Shown: piece by piece, positions 7,719-13,075 of the stretch
Layout of the letters: every line of letters begins with the position of its first letter
Position numbering within the stretch: the stretch's first letter is position 1
DNA from: Acidobacteriota bacterium
GTDB lineage: Bacteria > Acidobacteriota > Vicinamibacteria > Fen-336
Assembly: GCA_003222275.1 (NCBI GenBank)
Contig: QHVJ01000096.1
Coordinates: forward strand, 1-13,075
DNA: 13,075 nt
Reading direction: 5' to 3'
The notes under the pieces: generated by a model
Database searches by the model: none
Told to the model about the DNA's origin: nothing
The model's input: the letters and a program-made list of their open reading frames with translations, nothing else
Made by a program: the position numbers and the translations under genes

Positions 7719-7945
7719 GCCTTGAACATCGTCCTGCTTGTGGCGCCCGGCGGATGTTGTTGGACGGTGAAGGTGGAGACGTCGACGTGACCGAGGGTCT
7801 GCGGTGGCTAAATGCGGCGGCAGTGCAGGACGAACCCCAGGCGCTCCGGCACCTTGGGTTACCCCGCGGGCGACACCCAAGAACTGCCCGGAAGCAAGTC
7901 ATTGAATCATTGGAGCCGGCGCTCGGGATTGAACCGAGGACCTGA
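7715..7945 (+). pseudogene. Sel1-like repeat gene remnant (one repeat); its 3' end reads into the tRNA-Thr fragment
   Basis: 'GEGGDVDVTEGLRWLNAAAVQDEPQALRHLG' fits the Sel1 repeat consensus. The ORF has a GTG start overlapping the upstream stop (GTGA). Its last ~11 codons are encoded by the tRNA-derived sequence. Confidence 0.25.
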
Positions 7946-7955
7946 TGATTACGAA
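7911..7955 (-). tRNA. 3' fragment of a tRNA-Thr(CGT) gene (anticodon loop to CCA); an att-type direct repeat left by an integrative element
   Basis: The minus-strand sequence is TTCGTAA-TCATC-AGGTC-CTCGG-TTCAATC-CCGAG-CGCCGGC-T-CCA. This has a canonical T-arm, acceptor 3' strand, discriminator and CCA. The sequence upstream has no matching 5' acceptor, D-arm or anticodon 5' strand. Confidence 0.6.
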
Positions 7956-8062
7956 TCCGTGTCTTCGTCGATGTTGCTAGAACGTCCTGCAACGTCTTGA
8001 AACCAGCAACCCCAGAAAGCCCTTGCCGTTAGCGGTTGAGATGTGGTTCGATCGCTCTCCTG

Positions 8063-8108
8063 CAGTTTCGACCAGTTTCGGTCGCGGTGTTACCCCGGTG
8101 TTACCCCG
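8063..8108 (+). repeat. short direct repeats upstream of the integrase start: 'cagtttcg' twice (8063-8080) and the tandem 11-mer 'gtgttaccccg' twice (8087-8108); candidate arm-type or regulatory sites
   Basis: Read directly from the sequence, 45-90 bp upstream of the integrase ATG at 8155. Confidence 0.5.
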
Positions 8109-8154: not shown

Positions 8155-8650
8155 ATGCCGACGGTGAAGCTGACCGCTCGCACGGTCGAAGCTGCGCGTC
8201 CGCCTAGGTCGGGTCGCCTCGAACTGTCCGACGTTGACCTCCCAGGCTTCTGCATTCGCATTACACGCAACGATCGACGCACGGCCTGTCTTCTACCGTG
8301 TCGGTTCGCGATTGCGCCGTGCGACGCTCGGCACGCTTCCACCGCCTGGCGGATGCTCGTCAGCTCGCGCGCGAGGCGCTCCGCGATGCTGCGCTCGGGT
8401 ACGATCCCGCCTCGGCTAAACGCGAGGCTCGCGAAGCGTTGACGGTCGCTGTCCTGGTCAGGGACTACATCGAAGCCGATTCGGGTCGTCGCAGTTCCGC
8501 CACTAACGGCGACTACCGACGCACACTCAAGGCGGTCGTCGAGAGGTCACCCATCGGGCAGCAAGCGGCCGCTCAGGTGGCCCGCGGCGAGCTACGCGCC
8601 TTCCTTGAAGGCACTGCCCGCAAGACTCCGATCCGGGCAAATCGCGTCCG
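8155..8650 (+). pseudogene. int: tyrosine integrase (P4-like, DUF4102 arm-binding N-terminus) that is frameshifted and truncated, leaving only the N-terminal ~160 aa in two frames
   Basis: The first frame gives 'MPTVKLTARTVEAARPPRSGRLELSDVDLPGFCIRITRNDRRT' (DUF4102 pattern). Near 8280-8330 it shifts to a second frame giving 'LADARQLAREALRDAALGYDPASAKREAREA...YRRTLKAVVERSPIGQQAAAQVARGELRAFLEGTARKTPIRANRVRQ' (integrase SAM-like N-domain). No catalytic domain (R..HxxR..Y) follows. Confidence 0.7.
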
Positions 8651-8909
8651 GCAGCCGAAGCCATGCCCGCTGCGTGACGAGTCCAACATTGCGAGCCGCC
8701 AAGTCGTAGAGAGGACCTCGAAAGCCCTTCCATCGGACACCTTCCAGCAGAAAGACCCTGAAGCGCCGAAAGTCCTCCGAGAGGGCCTCGTAGAAAGCAG
8801 CCGAGCCGATATGGAACATCGGATAGAGCGTGATCCGCAGATCGTGGTCCGGATGGCGCATCGCCGTACGGCCGACGGCCGCGAGGTCGCCTCGCACGAA
8901 CTCGACCAT
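8592..8909 (-). CDS. hypothetical protein or fragment (105 aa), with weak resemblance to the TraB/GumN/Tiki superfamily N-terminus
   Basis: 'DLRITLYPMFHIGSAAFYEALSEDFRRFRVFLLEGV' resembles the GxxH...E motifs of that superfamily. It is far shorter than family members and lies in the lower-GC accessory region. Confidence 0.3.
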   Translation of the reverse strand: MVEFVRGDLAAVGRTAMRHPDHDLRITLYPMFHIGSAAFYEALSEDFRRFRVFLLEGVRWKGFRGPLYDLAARNVGLVTQRAWLRLPDAICPDRSLAGSAFKEGA

Positions 8910-8912
8910 TGC

Positions 8913-9107
8913 CTAGACCCTTCGGCGTCCGACTCCTGCGTGCTGGCTGCCCTCGTGAGCTCGACGCCGACGGCCATCCACCAACCGCAGTCGGGTTTCG
9001 ATGTCGGCGGTCTCCTCAGTCGACAGGCCAAGAAAGTCCTGCGTCGTCCCGAACCACCAACCCCGCCTTTCGAGCCTCTTTTTCTTCGCCCTATGCATCC
9101 TTGCCAT
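8913..9107 (-). CDS. hypothetical small basic protein (64 aa)
   Basis: The ORF lies immediately upstream of the 8592-8909 ORF on the same strand, with a 3-nt gap. 'WFGTTQDFLGLSTEETADIETRLRLV' is non-repetitive and possibly HTH-like. There is no confident family match. Confidence 0.3.
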   Translation of the reverse strand: MARMHRAKKKRLERRGWWFGTTQDFLGLSTEETADIETRLRLVDGRRRRAHEGSQHAGVGRRRV

Positions 9108-9206
9108 CCCTCTCGTCGGCTTCGGCGGTCCTTCGCGCCCGCTCTCTGCGCTGCAACGTTCGCTTACATTACCACCGTGCCGGTACGCGTTAGAGGCTAC
9201 TGAATC

Positions 9207-10957: not shown

Positions 10958-11219
10958 GGGACACCCCCTTTCCAATGAACGACGCCAAACGACAAGAATG
11001 GCCTCCGGGGGACGGTTCGCCGGCCGCCACGCCTCCAGCGTGGAGCGCGACTTGAGTCCCCGCCGACTTCGCTTGTTACGGGGCGTTTTGGCGGGGCCGG
11101 TATCCGCGCGCTGCAAGACGCTCTCGCGCGATGCCGGGCGTGGCCAACACGGGCCACGTCCGGCCGGCGGATCACGGCGTCCGTCCCCCGAAGACCGCAC
11201 TCACGACTCACCATTCACG

Positions 11220-11291
11220 AGTTGGCACAGGAGTCGAACCTGTGACAGCCGAGTTTCGAGCTCGGTGCTCTATCCACTGAGCTAACCCTGA
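11220..11291 (-). tRNA. tRNA-like pseudogene with a canonical D-arm, an anticodon arm (loop CTCGAAA, anticodon CGA) and a T-arm, but a non-pairing acceptor stem (5' TCAGGGT vs 3' GCCAACT) and no encoded CCA
   Basis: On the minus strand the D-arm is 'TAGCTCAGTGGATAGAGCA'. The anticodon arm is CCGAG-CTCGAAA-CTCGG. The T-arm is ACAGG-TTCGACT-CCTGT. The anticodon CGA combined with a short variable loop does not fit any standard isoacceptor. Confidence 0.45.
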
Positions 11292-11414
11292 CACCTCCCT
11301 TCGTTAGAACCCGTGCGCGGAACGCGCGCCGCCGATCACAAGGTGAGGCGACGCGCACCGCCGGCCCGGGGGTATCAGCCCTTTCGCGGCCTCGTGGCCG
11401 CCTGAACTCCAAAA

Positions 11415-11488
11415 TGGAGGTAGGTCGGGGAGTCGAACCCCGCTAACTGGCTTTGCAGGCCAGCGCCTGACCGCTCGGCCAACCCACC
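11415..11488 (-). tRNA. tRNA-Cys(GCA)
   Basis: The acceptor is GGTGGGT/ACCTACC (one G-U pair). The anticodon arm is CTGGC-CTGCAAA-GCCAG. The T-arm is CGGGG-TTCGACT-CCCCG. Discriminator T and CCA are encoded. Length is 74 nt. Confidence 0.85.
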
Positions 11489-11943
11489 GGCAACTTCCGC
11501 TGCATGCGAACCACGTGGTCCGCTGCGTGCGAGGCGGCCCAGCTCTCCGGCTTGATCAGCGCCTTGAAGCCCTGGCCGACCACGAGGCCGACGAGCTCCT
11601 TGACGTAGGCGCTGCTCTTGTGAGCCACGACGGGGTTGGCGTCGATGTGCACCGTCAGCTCCCCCTTTACGATCGGCGAGAAGTGGAGTCCGAGGTCCAC
11701 CGACTTCCAGACCTCCTTCAGGAGCCGCTCGCGCAGGGAGGTGATCCGCGGCACTGTCTCCTTGCGATACGCGACGCGACCGCCCTTCCTCGGCGTGAGG
11801 ATCACCACAACCGTCACGAACTGGGTCAGGCGCCCCGTCTGGAGAGAGTCCGTCCCGACGTGGACCGCCTGGCCGTCCCTGGTGGCATCGCTGACAAACT
11901 GGAGGATGTCGGGGATCTTGACCTCATTCAGCGTCTTCCACAT
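11443..11943 (-). CDS. YkuK/DUF458-family RNase-H-like protein; its 3' end overlaps tRNA-Cys by ~46 nt
   Basis: 'VHVGTDSLQTGRLTQFVTVVVILTPRKGG...LTVHIDANP...ALIKPESWAASHAADHVVR' follows the YkuK pattern (..GTDSQ...FVTVIVI). The last ~15 codons are encoded by the tRNA-Cys gene. Confidence 0.65.
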   Translation of the reverse strand: MWKTLNEVKIPDILQFVSDATRDGQAVHVGTDSLQTGRLTQFVTVVVILTPRKGGRVAYRKETVPRITSLRERLLKEVWKSVDLGLHFSPIVKGELTVHIDANPVVAHKSSAYVKELVGLVVGQGFKALIKPESWAASHAADHVVRMQRKLPVGWPSGQALACKAS

Positions 11944-11954
11944 CGTGACCTCGC

Positions 11955-12330
11955 TAGAGAATGGAGGAGGGCCCCGTAGCGATCGCGCAGCGATCGCGAT
12001 TGATCAGGGGCGCCGAATTCAATTCGGCGCCCCGGAAGCCTCGAACCCTGTCGACTGGTTTTCGGGACCAGTCTCTATCCGACAGAATGCCCTCCTGAAA
12101 TTGGCGGAGAGGGCCTTAGCGATCGCGAAGCGATCGCGATTGATGAGGGGCGCCGAATTCAATTCGGCGCCCCGGAAGCCTCGAACCCTGTCGACTGGTT
12201 TTCGGGACCAGTCTCTATCCGACAGAATGCCCTCCTGAAATTGGCGGAGAGGGCCTTAGCGATCGCGAAGCGATCGCGATTGATGAGGAGCGCCGAATTC
12301 ATTTCGGTGCTCGGAAGATTCGAACTCTCG
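11955..12330. repeat. 140-bp tandem repeat, ~2.6 copies; unit starts fall at 11978, 12118 and 12258, and the third copy diverges
   Basis: Each unit contains 'agcgatcgcgNagcgatcgcgattgat' (two GCGATCGC palindromes). It then has a perfect 13-bp-stem hairpin 'ggggcgccgaattcaattcggcgcccc'. It ends with tRNA-like sequence (GGATAGAG, the stem-loop GACTGGT-CCCGAAA-ACCAGTC, GGGTTCGAGG). Copies 1 and 2 are nearly identical. Confidence 0.85.
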
Positions 12331-12395
12331 TGGCCGGATGGCCTCGGCACATTAGCGGTGTGCTGGGCTCCCCACTCGCCCTTTCCTCTCCGTGA

Positions 12396-12470
12396 TGGTG
12401 GCCGACCAGGGACTCGAACCCTGAAGGTCCCGCTTAGAAGGCGGGGAAGCGTCCATCGCTCGCGTCGGCC
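12396..12470 (-). tRNA. tRNA-Arg(TCT)
   Basis: The acceptor is GGCCGAC/GTCGGCC. The anticodon arm is CCCGC-CTTCTAA-GCGGG. The T-arm is CAGGG-TTCGAGT-CCCTG. Discriminator A and CCA are encoded. Positions 8-9 are GC (unusual) and the D-stem has one G-U pair. Confidence 0.7.
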
Positions 12471-12472
12471 AA

Positions 12473-12560
12473 TGGTCCCCGCTGGAGGAGTTCAACCTCC
12501 GTCTCTCCGTCCGGTCCTCCTGCTTACGGGCAGGTGTGCTGCCAGTAACACGTCATCGAC
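12473..12560 (-). tRNA. long-variable-arm tRNA-like pseudogene (Tyr GTA-like anticodon region, 6-nt anticodon loop, no pairing 5' acceptor)
   Basis: The T-arm is GGAGG-TTGAACT-CCTCC, followed by AGCGGGG-A-CCA. The stem is CCTGC/GCAGG with loop CCGTAA. The 5' end (GTCGATG) cannot pair with the 3' acceptor. Confidence 0.3.
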
Positions 12561-12561
12561 T

Positions 12562-12635
12562 TGGTCCAGGCTCGAGGACTCGAACCTCGATTCTCCGGTA
12601 ATCGGCCGGAAGTCCTGCCGTTGGACGAAGCCTGG
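12562..12635 (-). tRNA. tRNA with a full cloverleaf and an atypical anticodon loop CCGATTA (anticodon GAT, C33, U37); Ile(GAT)-like or atypical
   Basis: The acceptor is CCAGGCT/AGCCTGG. The D-arm is GTCC-AACGGCA-GGAC. The anticodon stem is TCCGG/CCGGA. The T-arm is CGAGG-TTCGAGT-CCTCG. Discriminator A and CCA are encoded. Confidence 0.5.
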
Positions 12636-12637
12636 AT

Positions 12638-12712
12638 TGGTGCCAGCGGTGGGAGTCGAACCCACCTCGTCCCGATCAAAAGGCGGGCACGCGGCCGCTG
12701 CGTCACGCTGGC
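12638..12712 (-). tRNA. tRNA-Lys(TTT)-like with a C31-U39 mismatch in the anticodon stem and G37; a TTG reading is possible if the loop is taken as 9 nt
   Basis: The acceptor is GCCAGCG/CGCTGGC. The D-stem is ACGC/GCGT. The anticodon region is CCCGC-CTTTTGA-TCGGG. The T-arm is GTGGG-TTCGACT-CCCAC. Discriminator A and CCA are encoded. Confidence 0.5.
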
Positions 12713-12720
12713 AATGAAGC

Positions 12721-12859
12721 TGGCTGTAGGGCCGGGATTCGAACCCGGATCTTTCGGAGCGTCCGAAGTGAATTCGTCCGCTCCTCATCAATCACGATCG
12801 CTTCGCGATCGTTAGGGCCGGTTAACAGCCGGACTTGTTGCCGTTGCCACCACCCTACA
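12721..12859 (-). tRNA. 139-nt tRNA-Asn(GTT)-like gene with a ~65-nt insertion (GCGATCGC palindromes plus a 29-nt hairpin) at the variable-loop position
   Basis: On the minus strand the 5' acceptor TGTAGGG pairs 7/7 with the 3' acceptor CCCTACA, followed by G and CCA. The anticodon loop is CTGTTAA (the canonical Asn loop). The T-arm is CCGGG-TTCGAAT-CCCGG. The D-stem is imperfect. The inserted module is an inverted copy of the module in the 140-bp tandem repeats. Confidence 0.5.
12756..12815. repeat. inverted copy of the hairpin + GCGATCGC module (hairpin 12756-12784 'ggagcgtccgaagtgaattcgtccgctcc'; palindrome part 12785-12815); it lies inside the Asn-like tRNA gene
   Basis: The reverse complement of 12749-12825 aligns with the start of repeat copy 3 (12247-12320), including 'gatgaggagcg.cgaattca.ttcgg'. 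Confidence 0.7.
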
Positions 12860-12878
12860 AGCGCACGACCTGTGAGGC

Positions 12879-13016
12879 TGGCTGGCAGACGTGGATTCGC
12901 TGTCTCGACGCTCTGCGGAGCGGAGCGTCGAGGCACGGCGGATCACGCGGAGCGTGATCGCCCACCACGATTGGCGGGTTCAGAGCCCGCGGTCCTGCCG
13001 TTGGACGATCTGCCAA
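12879..13016 (-). tRNA. 138-nt tRNA-Gln(CTG)-like gene with a ~65-nt insertion (two hairpins, 12904-12931 and 12941-12959) in the variable region and a degenerate T-arm
   Basis: On the minus strand the 5' acceptor TGGCAGA pairs 7/7 with TCTGCCA, followed by G and CCA (U1-A72 and G73 are typical of Gln). The D-arm is GTCC-AACGGCA-GGAC. The anticodon arm is GCGGG-CTCTGAA-CCCGC, a canonical loop. The T-loop region is AGCGAAT, with CGAAT conserved but no pairing stem. Confidence 0.45.
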
Positions 13017-13075
13017 TGGTCGGGTCGGGAGGAGTCGAACCTCCATGCACCTGCGCCCGAGGCAGGTGGGCTACC
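13017..13075 (-). tRNA. tRNA-Pro(CGG), 3' portion; the 5' part lies beyond the window end
   Basis: On the minus strand the anticodon arm is CCTGC-CTCGGGC-GCAGG (anticodon CGG, G37). The T-arm is GGAGG-TTCGACT-CCTCC. The acceptor 3' strand is CGACCCG, followed by A and CCA. Confidence 0.7.

Follow-up and report, generated by a model that had tools for sequence, protein, structure and literature searches.

The question raised by this locus is how a short tandem repeat with tRNA-like content came to lie in a bacterial contig, and whether the repeated unit is an element in its own right. The window, meaning the whole stretch of 13,075 nucleotides analyzed here, has a GC content of 65.6%, lower than the value of about 68% given in a preliminary description made from the sequence alone. 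Related contigs and arrays are referred to below by their L numbers.

A tandem repeat with a 140-bp period

TRF reported a period of 140 nt over 11977-12325, with 2.5 copies and 95% matches, and a repeat search placed three registers at 11957-12096, 12097-12236 and 12237-12376, with identities of 100, 94 and 60%, respectively. The 140-bp tandem repeat of the preliminary description is therefore real and non-random. The octamer GCGATCGC occurs six times in the window, every time within the repeat, compared to 1.10 +/- 0.98 occurrences in shuffled sequences, of which 0 of 200 reached six. A near-perfect hairpin, GGGGCGCCGAATT-C-AATTCGGCGCCCC, is present in repeat units 1 and 2 and has diverged to GAGCGCCGAATTCATTTCGGTGCTC in unit 3, as had been described. 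The inverted fourth copy reported inside an Asn tRNA gene is likewise present at 12756-12818, and the 41-nt arm at 12252-12292 matches 12779-12819 in inverted orientation with 93% complementarity.

The repeat lies in a long tRNA array

In the minus-strand tRNA cluster that surrounds the repeat, ARAGORN called Cys, Arg, Ile and Lys tRNAs and Rfam added two more; the cluster holds approximately 11 tRNA genes or pseudogenes, of which ARAGORN found 4. The array also contains a protein-coding gene.

11443..11943, minus strand: RNase H-like gene (PF04308, YkuK/DUF458) within the array, Pfam E 1.9e-29

The RNase H-like protein matches PF04308 and one unannotated PHROG only, with no match in PDB, NCBIfam or PADLOC. 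An exact-sequence look-up of this protein led to independent metagenome contigs that are 99% identical to the window, and the name that NCBI gives the protein cluster (locus tag DMF83_08620) assigns the contig to an Acidobacteria MAG. Next to the array of L030 lies an ECF sigma factor gene, indicating a bacterial setting. The related arrays have the properties of L-arrays, with at least 20 tRNA genes at about two or more per kb, a patchy distribution and a variable context: L016 carries 23 tRNAs in 2.5 kb, 24 tRNAs lie upstream of the RNase H-like ortholog in L031, and the flanking genes vary among L026, L030, L031, L033 and L034. As the RNase H-like gene holds an equivalent position beside the complete arrays L031, L033 and L034, and is thus also found with insert-free arrays, it is not specifically tied to the inserts described below. 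A phage-type HNH endonuclease is encoded in L029 and an RtcB fragment adjoins L031, and the flanks that were read around the arrays revealed neither a transposase nor an HUH gene. The relevant passages of the literature (PMC8421152) describe L-arrays as horizontally spread, supernumerary, associated with HNH endonucleases and RtcB, and prone to insertions, duplications and deletions. Taken together with the full explanation developed below, it is probable that positions 11,220-13,075 make up the distal portion of a long L-array which reached the Acidobacteria MAG by horizontal transfer and is read from the minus strand.

Interrupted tRNA genes beneath the repeat

Three real tRNA genes of the window, Ser(GCT), an anticodon-CGA tRNA and Asn(GTT), are interrupted by copies of one module, which we term family 1, and in each of them the acceptor stem closes across the module.

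12242..12391, minus strand: gene C, interrupted tRNA-Ser(GCT), T-stem 3' strand hit, module antisense
12253..12317, plus strand: module in gene C, CTAG-first strand on the plus strand of the window, nhmmer E 3e-19
12102..12235, minus strand: gene B, chimeric pseudo-tRNA with its 5' part from the CGA gene and its 3' end from Ser(GCT), duplication product
12113..12180, plus strand: module in gene B, recombinant with a C-type GCGATCGC side and an A-type hairpin
11962..12095, minus strand: gene A, anticodon-CGA tRNA, T-loop and T-stem 3' strand replaced by an antisense module
11974..12040, plus strand: module in gene A, nhmmer E 6e-18
12721..12859, minus strand: interrupted tRNA-Asn(GTT), sense module at the junction of anticodon stem and variable loop
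12756..12818, minus strand: module in the Asn gene, clean 63-nt insertion, nhmmer E 9e-20

Gene C has a long variable arm and the acceptor GGAGAGG...CCTCTCC-G-CCA (12391 to 12242), and gene A has the acceptor GGAGGGC...GCCCTCC-T-CCA (12095 to 11962), while the acceptor halves of gene B, GGAGGGC and CCTCTCC, are mismatched. The preliminary description had found no valid acceptor because the wrong strand was read and the insert was not read across; on the minus strand there is a 7-bp acceptor whose 3' strand lies beyond the module. Brute-force removal of one segment from each gene, followed by ARAGORN, restored tRNA calls upon removal of 40-60 nt for Ser(GCT), Asn(GTT) and Gln(CTG), and in related arrays for Ala(TGC) and Val(TAC). 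Gene C lacking 59 nt was called as tRNA-Ser(gct), and 463 single-deletion variants of the Asn gene were called as tRNA-Asn(gtt). No single deletion yielded a call for genes A and B, which, as is seen from the empty allele, lack the T-stem 3' strand. That allele, in L001, reads GGAGGGC...CAGGG TTCGACT CCCTG GCCCTCC T CCA and is called by ARAGORN as a 73-nt Ser(cga). Uninterrupted alleles also exist for gene C (L001-L004, L026, L035 and L038) and for the Asn gene (L016 and L029). The interrupted genes are thus canonical tRNAs, with a cloverleaf, a 7-bp acceptor and a detector call, after excision, or in the case of the CGA gene through its natural empty allele.

It follows from the L001 allele that the tRNA-like part of the repeat unit, about 75 nt, is the 5' portion of a real tRNA gene read from the opposite strand. 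The association of the repeated module with tRNA sequence therefore holds, and with it that part of the earlier proposal of a tRNA-derived repetitive element, but the module of 63-68 bp is not itself derived from a tRNA.

At 12473-12561, the 5' part of a Thr(CGT) gene is fused to the 3' half of an Arg(CCT) gene, a further product of recombination within the array.

Structure of the family-1 module

The family-1 module is a non-coding sequence of 63-68 bp that consists of a GCGATCGC-NNN-GCGATCGC hairpin, a conserved spacer ATTGAnGAGG and a second hairpin of 11-13 bp. Two AGCGATCGCG repeats with an 11-bp period make up hairpin 1, whose stem is 8 bp and whose loop is 3 nt long; it is nearly invariant. 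Hairpin 2 drifts in sequence, with pairing kept through double-sided substitutions at stem positions 7-9 in a loop-anchored table, and has decayed in the L030 Ala copy. As judged from these sequence comparisons, the near invariance of hairpin 1 and the compensatory changes that retain pairing in hairpin 2 despite its drift indicate selection on the element itself. Each DNA strand of the module folds into two hairpins. With regard to a preferred strand, the predicted folding energy is slightly better for the CTAG-first strand in 12 of 12 copies, substitution counts are 5 G.T against 3 A.C, and the G-N-A loop is broken to AAC in L038. The module begins with GCC-YTAG, the YTAG lying 5' of hairpin 1 (GTAG in one copy), and ends with G(R)AAG after hairpin 2. 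The termini have no complementarity, so there are no terminal inverted repeats, and alignments of filled against empty alleles reveal no target duplication but a loss of 0-7 nt of target.

Empty and filled alleles and the origin of the repeat

The related contigs contain the locus in other states, and the number of modules differs from assembly to assembly. In L001 the Ser(GCT) and CGA genes are adjacent and both uninterrupted, with the T-arms GAGAG-TTCGAAT-CTCTC and CAGGG-TTCGACT-CCCTG. Seven to eight contigs (named L002-L004, L026 and L035-L037) carry the module solely in the CGA gene. Both the insertion in gene C and the three-copy arrangement are known from the window's own assembly alone, and the tandem 140-bp unit is absent from nine related contigs.

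Column-by-column comparison of the three copies shows that the 8 diagnostic sites of copy B in 12101-12145 are all C-type and those in 12149-12240 all A-type, with zero private mutations and a switch point at 12146-12148. The modules of the adjacent Ser(GCT) and CGA genes have the same orientation and lie 140 bp apart, which is the period of the repeat. As the middle copy is a perfect chimera and the period equals the module spacing, the repeat can be accounted for by one unequal crossover or template switch, and on this comparison of sequences the tandem repeat is a by-product of recombination between the module copies in the Ser(GCT) and CGA genes. The tandem amplification of an element, as first proposed, is replaced by one duplication with a 140-bp period, in which the copy in the middle combines its two neighbors cleanly.

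The view of the preliminary description, that a tRNA-derived, SINE- or satellite-like unit of 140 bp was tandemly amplified, does account for a 140-bp periodicity that carries tRNA-like content. That view is nevertheless extremely unlikely, as the 140-bp unit is found at no other locus, only the module of 63-68 bp recurs, and does so at non-homologous positions, the tRNA-like part is an intact tRNA gene in L001, and the length of the unit is the spacing of two modules around a chimeric middle copy. A satellite would be a unit amplified as such, present in more than two full copies or at other loci, and what is present here is 2.5 registers.

An assembly artefact is an alternative source of the middle copy: if the genome held two modules only, one each in Ser(GCT) and the CGA gene, an assembler running through the repeat loop twice could have invented copy B. 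In favor of this, the duplication is seen in no other contig, short-read contigs of the locus end at or near the array, and copy B has no private mutations. The chimeric junction, however, requires reads that join a C-type left half to an A-type hairpin, and the longest exact word common to the parental modules is 16 nt, below the usual assembly k, which makes such a loop unlikely; furthermore, no contig was found that has both parental modules but lacks B. We therefore regard an artefact as quite unlikely.

Insertion sites of family 1

Alignment of filled and empty alleles, together with profile searches, defined six independent family-1 sites.

Ala(TGC): D-loop position 20, sense, 1 nt replaced
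Val(TAC): positions 7-11, sense, 5 nt replaced
Asn(GTT): junction of anticodon stem and variable loop, sense, AACCG-GAAAGATCC becoming AACCG(GCCCTAA...GACGCTCC)GAAAGATCC, no target duplication
Ser(GCT): T-stem, antisense, 5 nt replaced, GGAGAGG-GAGAG-ATTCGAA becoming GGAGAGG(GCCTTAG...GTGCTCGGAAG)ATTCGAA
tRNA(CGA): T-arm, antisense, 6-7 nt replaced, GGAGGGCC-AGGGAG-TCGAACC becoming GGAGGGCC(CCGTAG...CCCCGGAAGCC)TCGAACC
L038: spacer between Ser(GCT) and Ser(CGA), antisense, intergenic

Both orientations occur, and five of the six sites are inside genes. As the arrays are about 85% tRNA sequence, hits in genes do not need tRNA-specific targeting. On the CTAG-first strand, GG precedes the module at 6/6 sites. 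The junctions are uneven, with 5-7 nt of target replaced at three sites (Ser, CGA and Val) and short variable nucleotides at both module ends. Empty alleles are known for 5/5 gene-internal sites, showing presence/absence polymorphism. All seven arrays that form one subclade carry the Ala module, where it interrupts each array's only Ala gene, and that gene retains its G3:U70 acceptor and TGC anticodon; being the sole copy, the interrupted Ala gene could still be in use. The complete arrays L031, L033 and L034 (21-26 tRNAs), which adjoin more divergent orthologs of the RNase H-like protein gene, contain no family-1 copy and have an intact tRNA-Ala, from which it follows that the family-1 insertions are derived within one subclade.

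A second insert family

The window also contains an insert of a different family.

12879..13015, minus strand: interrupted tRNA-Gln(CTG), family-2 insert in the T-loop
12900..12963, minus strand: family-2 two-hairpin insert of 64 nt, after T54 of the T-loop, sense, nhmmer E 5e-21

Deletion variants of this gene were called as tRNA-Gln(ctg), and empty alleles are present in L016 and L029; at the junction, CGTGG TT CGAAT becomes CGTGG T(GGGCGATC...GAGACAG)CGAAT. Family 2 also occurs in an Ile gene (L029) and a Gly-like gene (L029 and L030), at the identical T-loop position and always in sense orientation, and the insertion in the Gly-like gene is clean. L034 contains a weak family-2 copy.

Distribution outside the window

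The search beyond the arrays used one exact 24-nt conserved core pattern, with the host itself known as a 13-kb contig. Among 185,579 species-representative genomes, the pattern gave 10 matches, all by chance, in coding sequence and without hairpin 2 or tRNAs, and the cyanobacterial matches of the pattern were in unrelated contexts. Three scans of viral contigs gave zero matches or one chance match. In JGI metagenomes there were seven genuine loci, and 7/7 are dense tRNA arrays homologous to that of the window. BLAST of 11200-13075 gave no match among annotated plasmids and, among phages, only a 60-nt tRNA similarity. At E <= 1, Rfam found nothing in the modules and only tRNAs in the surrounding region, and the literature yielded no description of either insert family. 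Both insert families appear to be restricted to the mobile tRNA array.

In L015, L017 and L018, hairpin 1 with ATTGA lies 85 nt past an IS110-family transposase. A link to this IS was rejected, as there is no matching half on its other side, and the proximity may be a coincidence or reflect a target.

How the inserts may have spread

The explanation that we consider probable is that an L-array was invaded at the DNA level by the family-1 element and that one recombination event then produced the repeat. The filled and empty alleles show that the element inserted into several array genes, in the window Asn(GTT), Ser(GCT) and the adjacent tRNA(CGA), and the chimeric copy B shows recombination between module copies; an unequal crossover or template switch within 12146-12148 would then have doubled the intervening 140 bp, giving rise to the chimeric gene B and the apparent 2.5-copy repeat. 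The element was presumably mobilized in trans, with its hairpins being recognized, and the interrupted genes were most likely inactivated, which would be tolerable because the array tRNAs are supernumerary. As to the reaction itself, family 1 resembles IS200/IS605 and REP elements in having neither inverted repeats nor duplications, in its subterminal hairpins and in a GG flank that is constant, and by this analogy a hairpin-dependent single-strand transposition of that type, which is the route we prefer, may have been involved. The imprecise junctions, with 5-7 nt replaced at three sites, are a poor fit to a precise transposase reaction, so this route is held tentatively, as one that falls somewhat short of probable.

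The main alternative involves no transposition at all: array nucleases such as the HNH endonuclease would cut tRNA genes, and repair would copy a neighbor's module through microhomology or join it to the broken ends. In its favor, spread is confined to the arrays, the junctions are heterogeneous, the target having lost 0-7 nt and the ends carrying a few variable nucleotides, and the G(R)AAG flank resembles the native Asn flank GAAAG. L029 encodes an HNH endonuclease, nucleases that cut tRNA genes have been reported in the literature, and recombinant products are frequent. On the other hand, the clean insertions in the Asn gene and, for family 2, in the Gly-like gene resemble a defined reaction, GG precedes 6/6 family-1 sites on the same module strand, the compensatory changes in hairpin 2 point to the element being under selection, and no co-conversion tract of donor flanks has been demonstrated. 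Break repair is a serious alternative source of the insertions, if a rather unlikely one.

A further alternative is that the inserts of both families are RNA introns, cut from the pre-tRNA by an endonuclease and ligase, such as the RNase H-like protein and RtcB, so that the genes would remain functional. In its complete form, families 1 and 2 would be new array-resident, site-directed elements whose RNA is processed by the host, family 2 always at T54/C56 in sense; the sense copies (Ala, Val, Asn, Gln and Ile) would be excised or tolerated through a YkuK-family nuclease and RtcB-type ligation, and the antisense and intergenic copies would be dead ends. The family-1 copies in Ala, Val and Asn and every family-2 copy are in fact sense, the position of family 2 in the T-loop is constant, the interrupted Ala with its preserved G3:U70 and TGC is the sole Ala gene in seven arrays, and RtcB is tied to L-arrays in the literature, with an RtcB fragment beside L031. 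However, among the six family-1 copies, two run antisense to the tRNA and another is intergenic, and Ser-C and CGA-A have physically lost the T-stem 3' strand, so no excision can rebuild these tRNAs. The predicted folds of all interrupted precursors contain both module hairpins but neither a bulge-helix-bulge nor junction pairing, there is no Rfam match, the host is bacterial, the insert-free arrays share the RNase H-like gene, and hairpin 2 is decayed in the L030 Ala copy. We consider RNA processing very unlikely, both for the element families as a whole and for the proposed excision of the sense copies, notably Ala, to which the small remaining probability applies.

Group I introns were also considered and rejected, as the inserts are 63-68 nt long compared to a core of at least about 200 nt, and there is no Rfam match.

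Implications

The finding can be accounted for by ordinary processes, here at work on an unusual substrate. The locus provides a dated, strain-level series of an L-array, from the empty state to one insertion to two insertions and a duplication, in which L-arrays can be seen to acquire pseudogenes, chimeric genes and tandem repeats. As tRNA finders miss the interrupted genes, the gene content of arrays and the 'completeness' of supernumerary tRNA sets are under-counted wherever such inserts are present. The two families, one of them T-loop-specific, also offer a compact system in which to study hairpin-directed insertion that involves neither inverted repeats nor target duplications. Were an interrupted gene to prove functional, it would bear on the open question of protein-dependent tRNA splicing in bacteria, and the RNA-processing alternative, if true, would mean that a bacterium splices tRNAs with the help of proteins or matures them from split precursors.

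Comparison with known elements

Families 1 and 2 are apparently two undescribed small insert families for which the underlying process is familiar. Like REP/REPIN sequences and the palindrome-associated elements of the IS200/IS605 group, family 1 is short, non-coding and built of hairpins, without terminal inverted repeats or target duplication; it likewise has a conserved tetranucleotide (here YTAG), inserts beside a short motif (here GG) and occurs in both orientations. Subterminal hairpins at both ends, without inverted repeats or duplication, are present as in IS200/IS605. IS200/IS605 elements insert precisely 3' of a fixed target of 4-5 nt; for family 1, GG precedes the module at 6/6 sites, and only the Asn site is clean, with Ala losing 1 nt, Ser, CGA and Val having 5-7 nt replaced, and L038 lacking an aligned empty allele. 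REPs are extragenic and present in tens to hundreds of copies genome-wide, whereas all genuine family-1 copies come from a single clade of tRNA arrays, with 5/6 sites genic and genome-wide copies judged from the 13-kb host contig. In contrast to both groups, the family-1 junctions are imprecise at half of the sites, and the flanks that were read contain no RAYT or TnpA gene.

Rickettsia palindromic elements are 100-150 bp long, spread genome-wide and tolerated in-frame in proteins. They share with family 1 a small size, a palindromic structure, a location inside functional genes and polymorphism between relatives; family 1, however, targets tRNA genes and has destroyed the T-arm of two of them. 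MITEs are approached in that the modules are short, non-coding, multicopy and polymorphic, but terminal inverted repeats and target-site duplications are absent. HIP1 is over-represented genome-wide in cyanobacteria, and the preliminary description had drawn a link to it from the octamer, which is indeed the same sequence, here in paired form. That link is not upheld, as the contig is from an Acidobacteria MAG and 6/6 occurrences are inside the module, with zero elsewhere in 13 kb.

Non-canonical tRNA introns of archaea and their transposition in Thermoproteales have been reviewed (PMC4090602, PMC4390854). They are likewise related short inserts at varied non-anticodon positions of different tRNA genes, which tRNA finders then miss. 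Archaeal tRNA introns are always sense, carry a bulge-helix-bulge (BHB) motif and require EndA. Compared to these introns, the inserts described here have a variable orientation, no BHB, a bacterial host and a loss of exon sequence. An archaeal-type intron was rejected on the same grounds, with no BHB in the folds, antisense copies in Ser(GCT) and CGA where the T-stem strand is missing, and an intergenic copy in L038.

Finally, the closest likeness is to published L-arrays (PMC8421152; Tran et al. 2016, PMC4758250), which in the passages concerned are likewise runs of at least 20 tRNAs with 1-10-nt spacers in varied genomic contexts, and likewise contain pseudogenes, insertions, duplications and deletions, with HNH endonuclease and RtcB genes nearby. 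The same passages describe no defined small element that interrupts tRNA genes, as the two families do here. In the relevant part of a published survey, Acidobacteria are placed among the phyla without L-arrays, whereas the array described here belongs to an Acidobacteria MAG.

Chimeric, truncated and unusual tRNA genes

A trace of rearrangement within the minus-strand tRNA array lies in one pseudogene, which was recognised by its match to tRNAs of related arrays, and a second gene is degenerate at its acceptor stem:

12473-12561, minus strand: chimeric tRNA pseudogene
11223-11287, minus strand: tRNA found with Rfam (45.8 bits)

The pseudogene matches tRNA-Thr(CGT) in its 5' part and is identical to the tRNA-Arg(CCT) of related arrays over its 3' half. 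This Thr/Arg chimera implies that about six genes were deleted by recombination between one tRNA gene and another. The tRNA at 11223-11287 lacks 4+4 nt of the acceptor stem, has the anticodon loop CTCGAAA and was not called by ARAGORN; related arrays carry tRNA-Phe(GAA) at roughly this position. In addition, position 33 is C instead of the near-universal U in the minus-strand anticodon loops of tRNA-Ser(GCT) (12355-12349) and the CGA tRNA (12068-12062). The CGA tRNA of the window's lineage is of the short type-I form; the orthologous genes in three related arrays (L031, L033 and L038) encode normal long-arm tRNA-Ser(CGA) and share its acceptor stem.

Inserted hairpin modules

A second family of two-hairpin insert, unrelated to the 63-68-bp module (family 1) of the Ser(GCT), CGA and Asn(GTT) genes, was found inside tRNA-Gln (12879-13015):

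12900-12963, minus strand: family-2 two-hairpin insert, 64 nt

The insertion point is exactly 3' of T54 in the T-loop, and the Ile gene and one Gly-like gene of related arrays (L029, L030) carry family 2 at the identical T-loop position and in identical orientation. Array L016 lacks family 2.

Separately, an exact match to hairpin 1 of the family-1 module plus ATTGA occurs at 1687-1710 of L015, a contig with 58% GC and no tRNAs, and also in L017 and L018. This match follows an IS110-family transposase gene, 85 nt past its stop codon, and could represent a target, an IS end or coincidence.

Array-embedded genes and a probable island border

Protein-coding and border features were as follows:

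11443-11943, minus strand: array-embedded PF04308 (YkuK/DUF458, RNase H-like) gene
7911-7957, minus strand: isolated 3' half of a tRNA, with the anticodon-loop region TTCGTAA, a T-arm and CCA
8298-9203, plus strand: ORF adjoining the tRNA half, with a weak integrase arm-binding match as its sole similarity
8085-8108: perfect tandem repeat, CGGTGTTACCC x2.2
316-344: perfect tandem repeat, (GCCGGG)x4.8

The final ~15 codons of the PF04308 gene overlap tRNA-Cys (11415-11488); next comes a Band_7 gene. The gene is embedded in the same array family in L026, L031, L033 and L034, and more than 900 homologues of its protein share at least 80% identity, the majority on short contigs. Searches of PDB, NCBIfam and PADLOC with this protein yielded no match. 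The tRNA half and the adjoining ORF are probably the decayed edge of an integrated island carrying the array; the CGGTGTTACCC repeat occupies non-coding sequence between them.

Finally, a phage-type HNH endonuclease gene (phrog_2255, E 2e-30) directly follows the array in L029 (2528-3013), and an RtcB fragment flanks that of L031 (3872-4300). These two neighbours resemble the published surroundings of cyanobacterial L-arrays, dense tRNA gene arrays that are reported to spread horizontally (PMC8421152).
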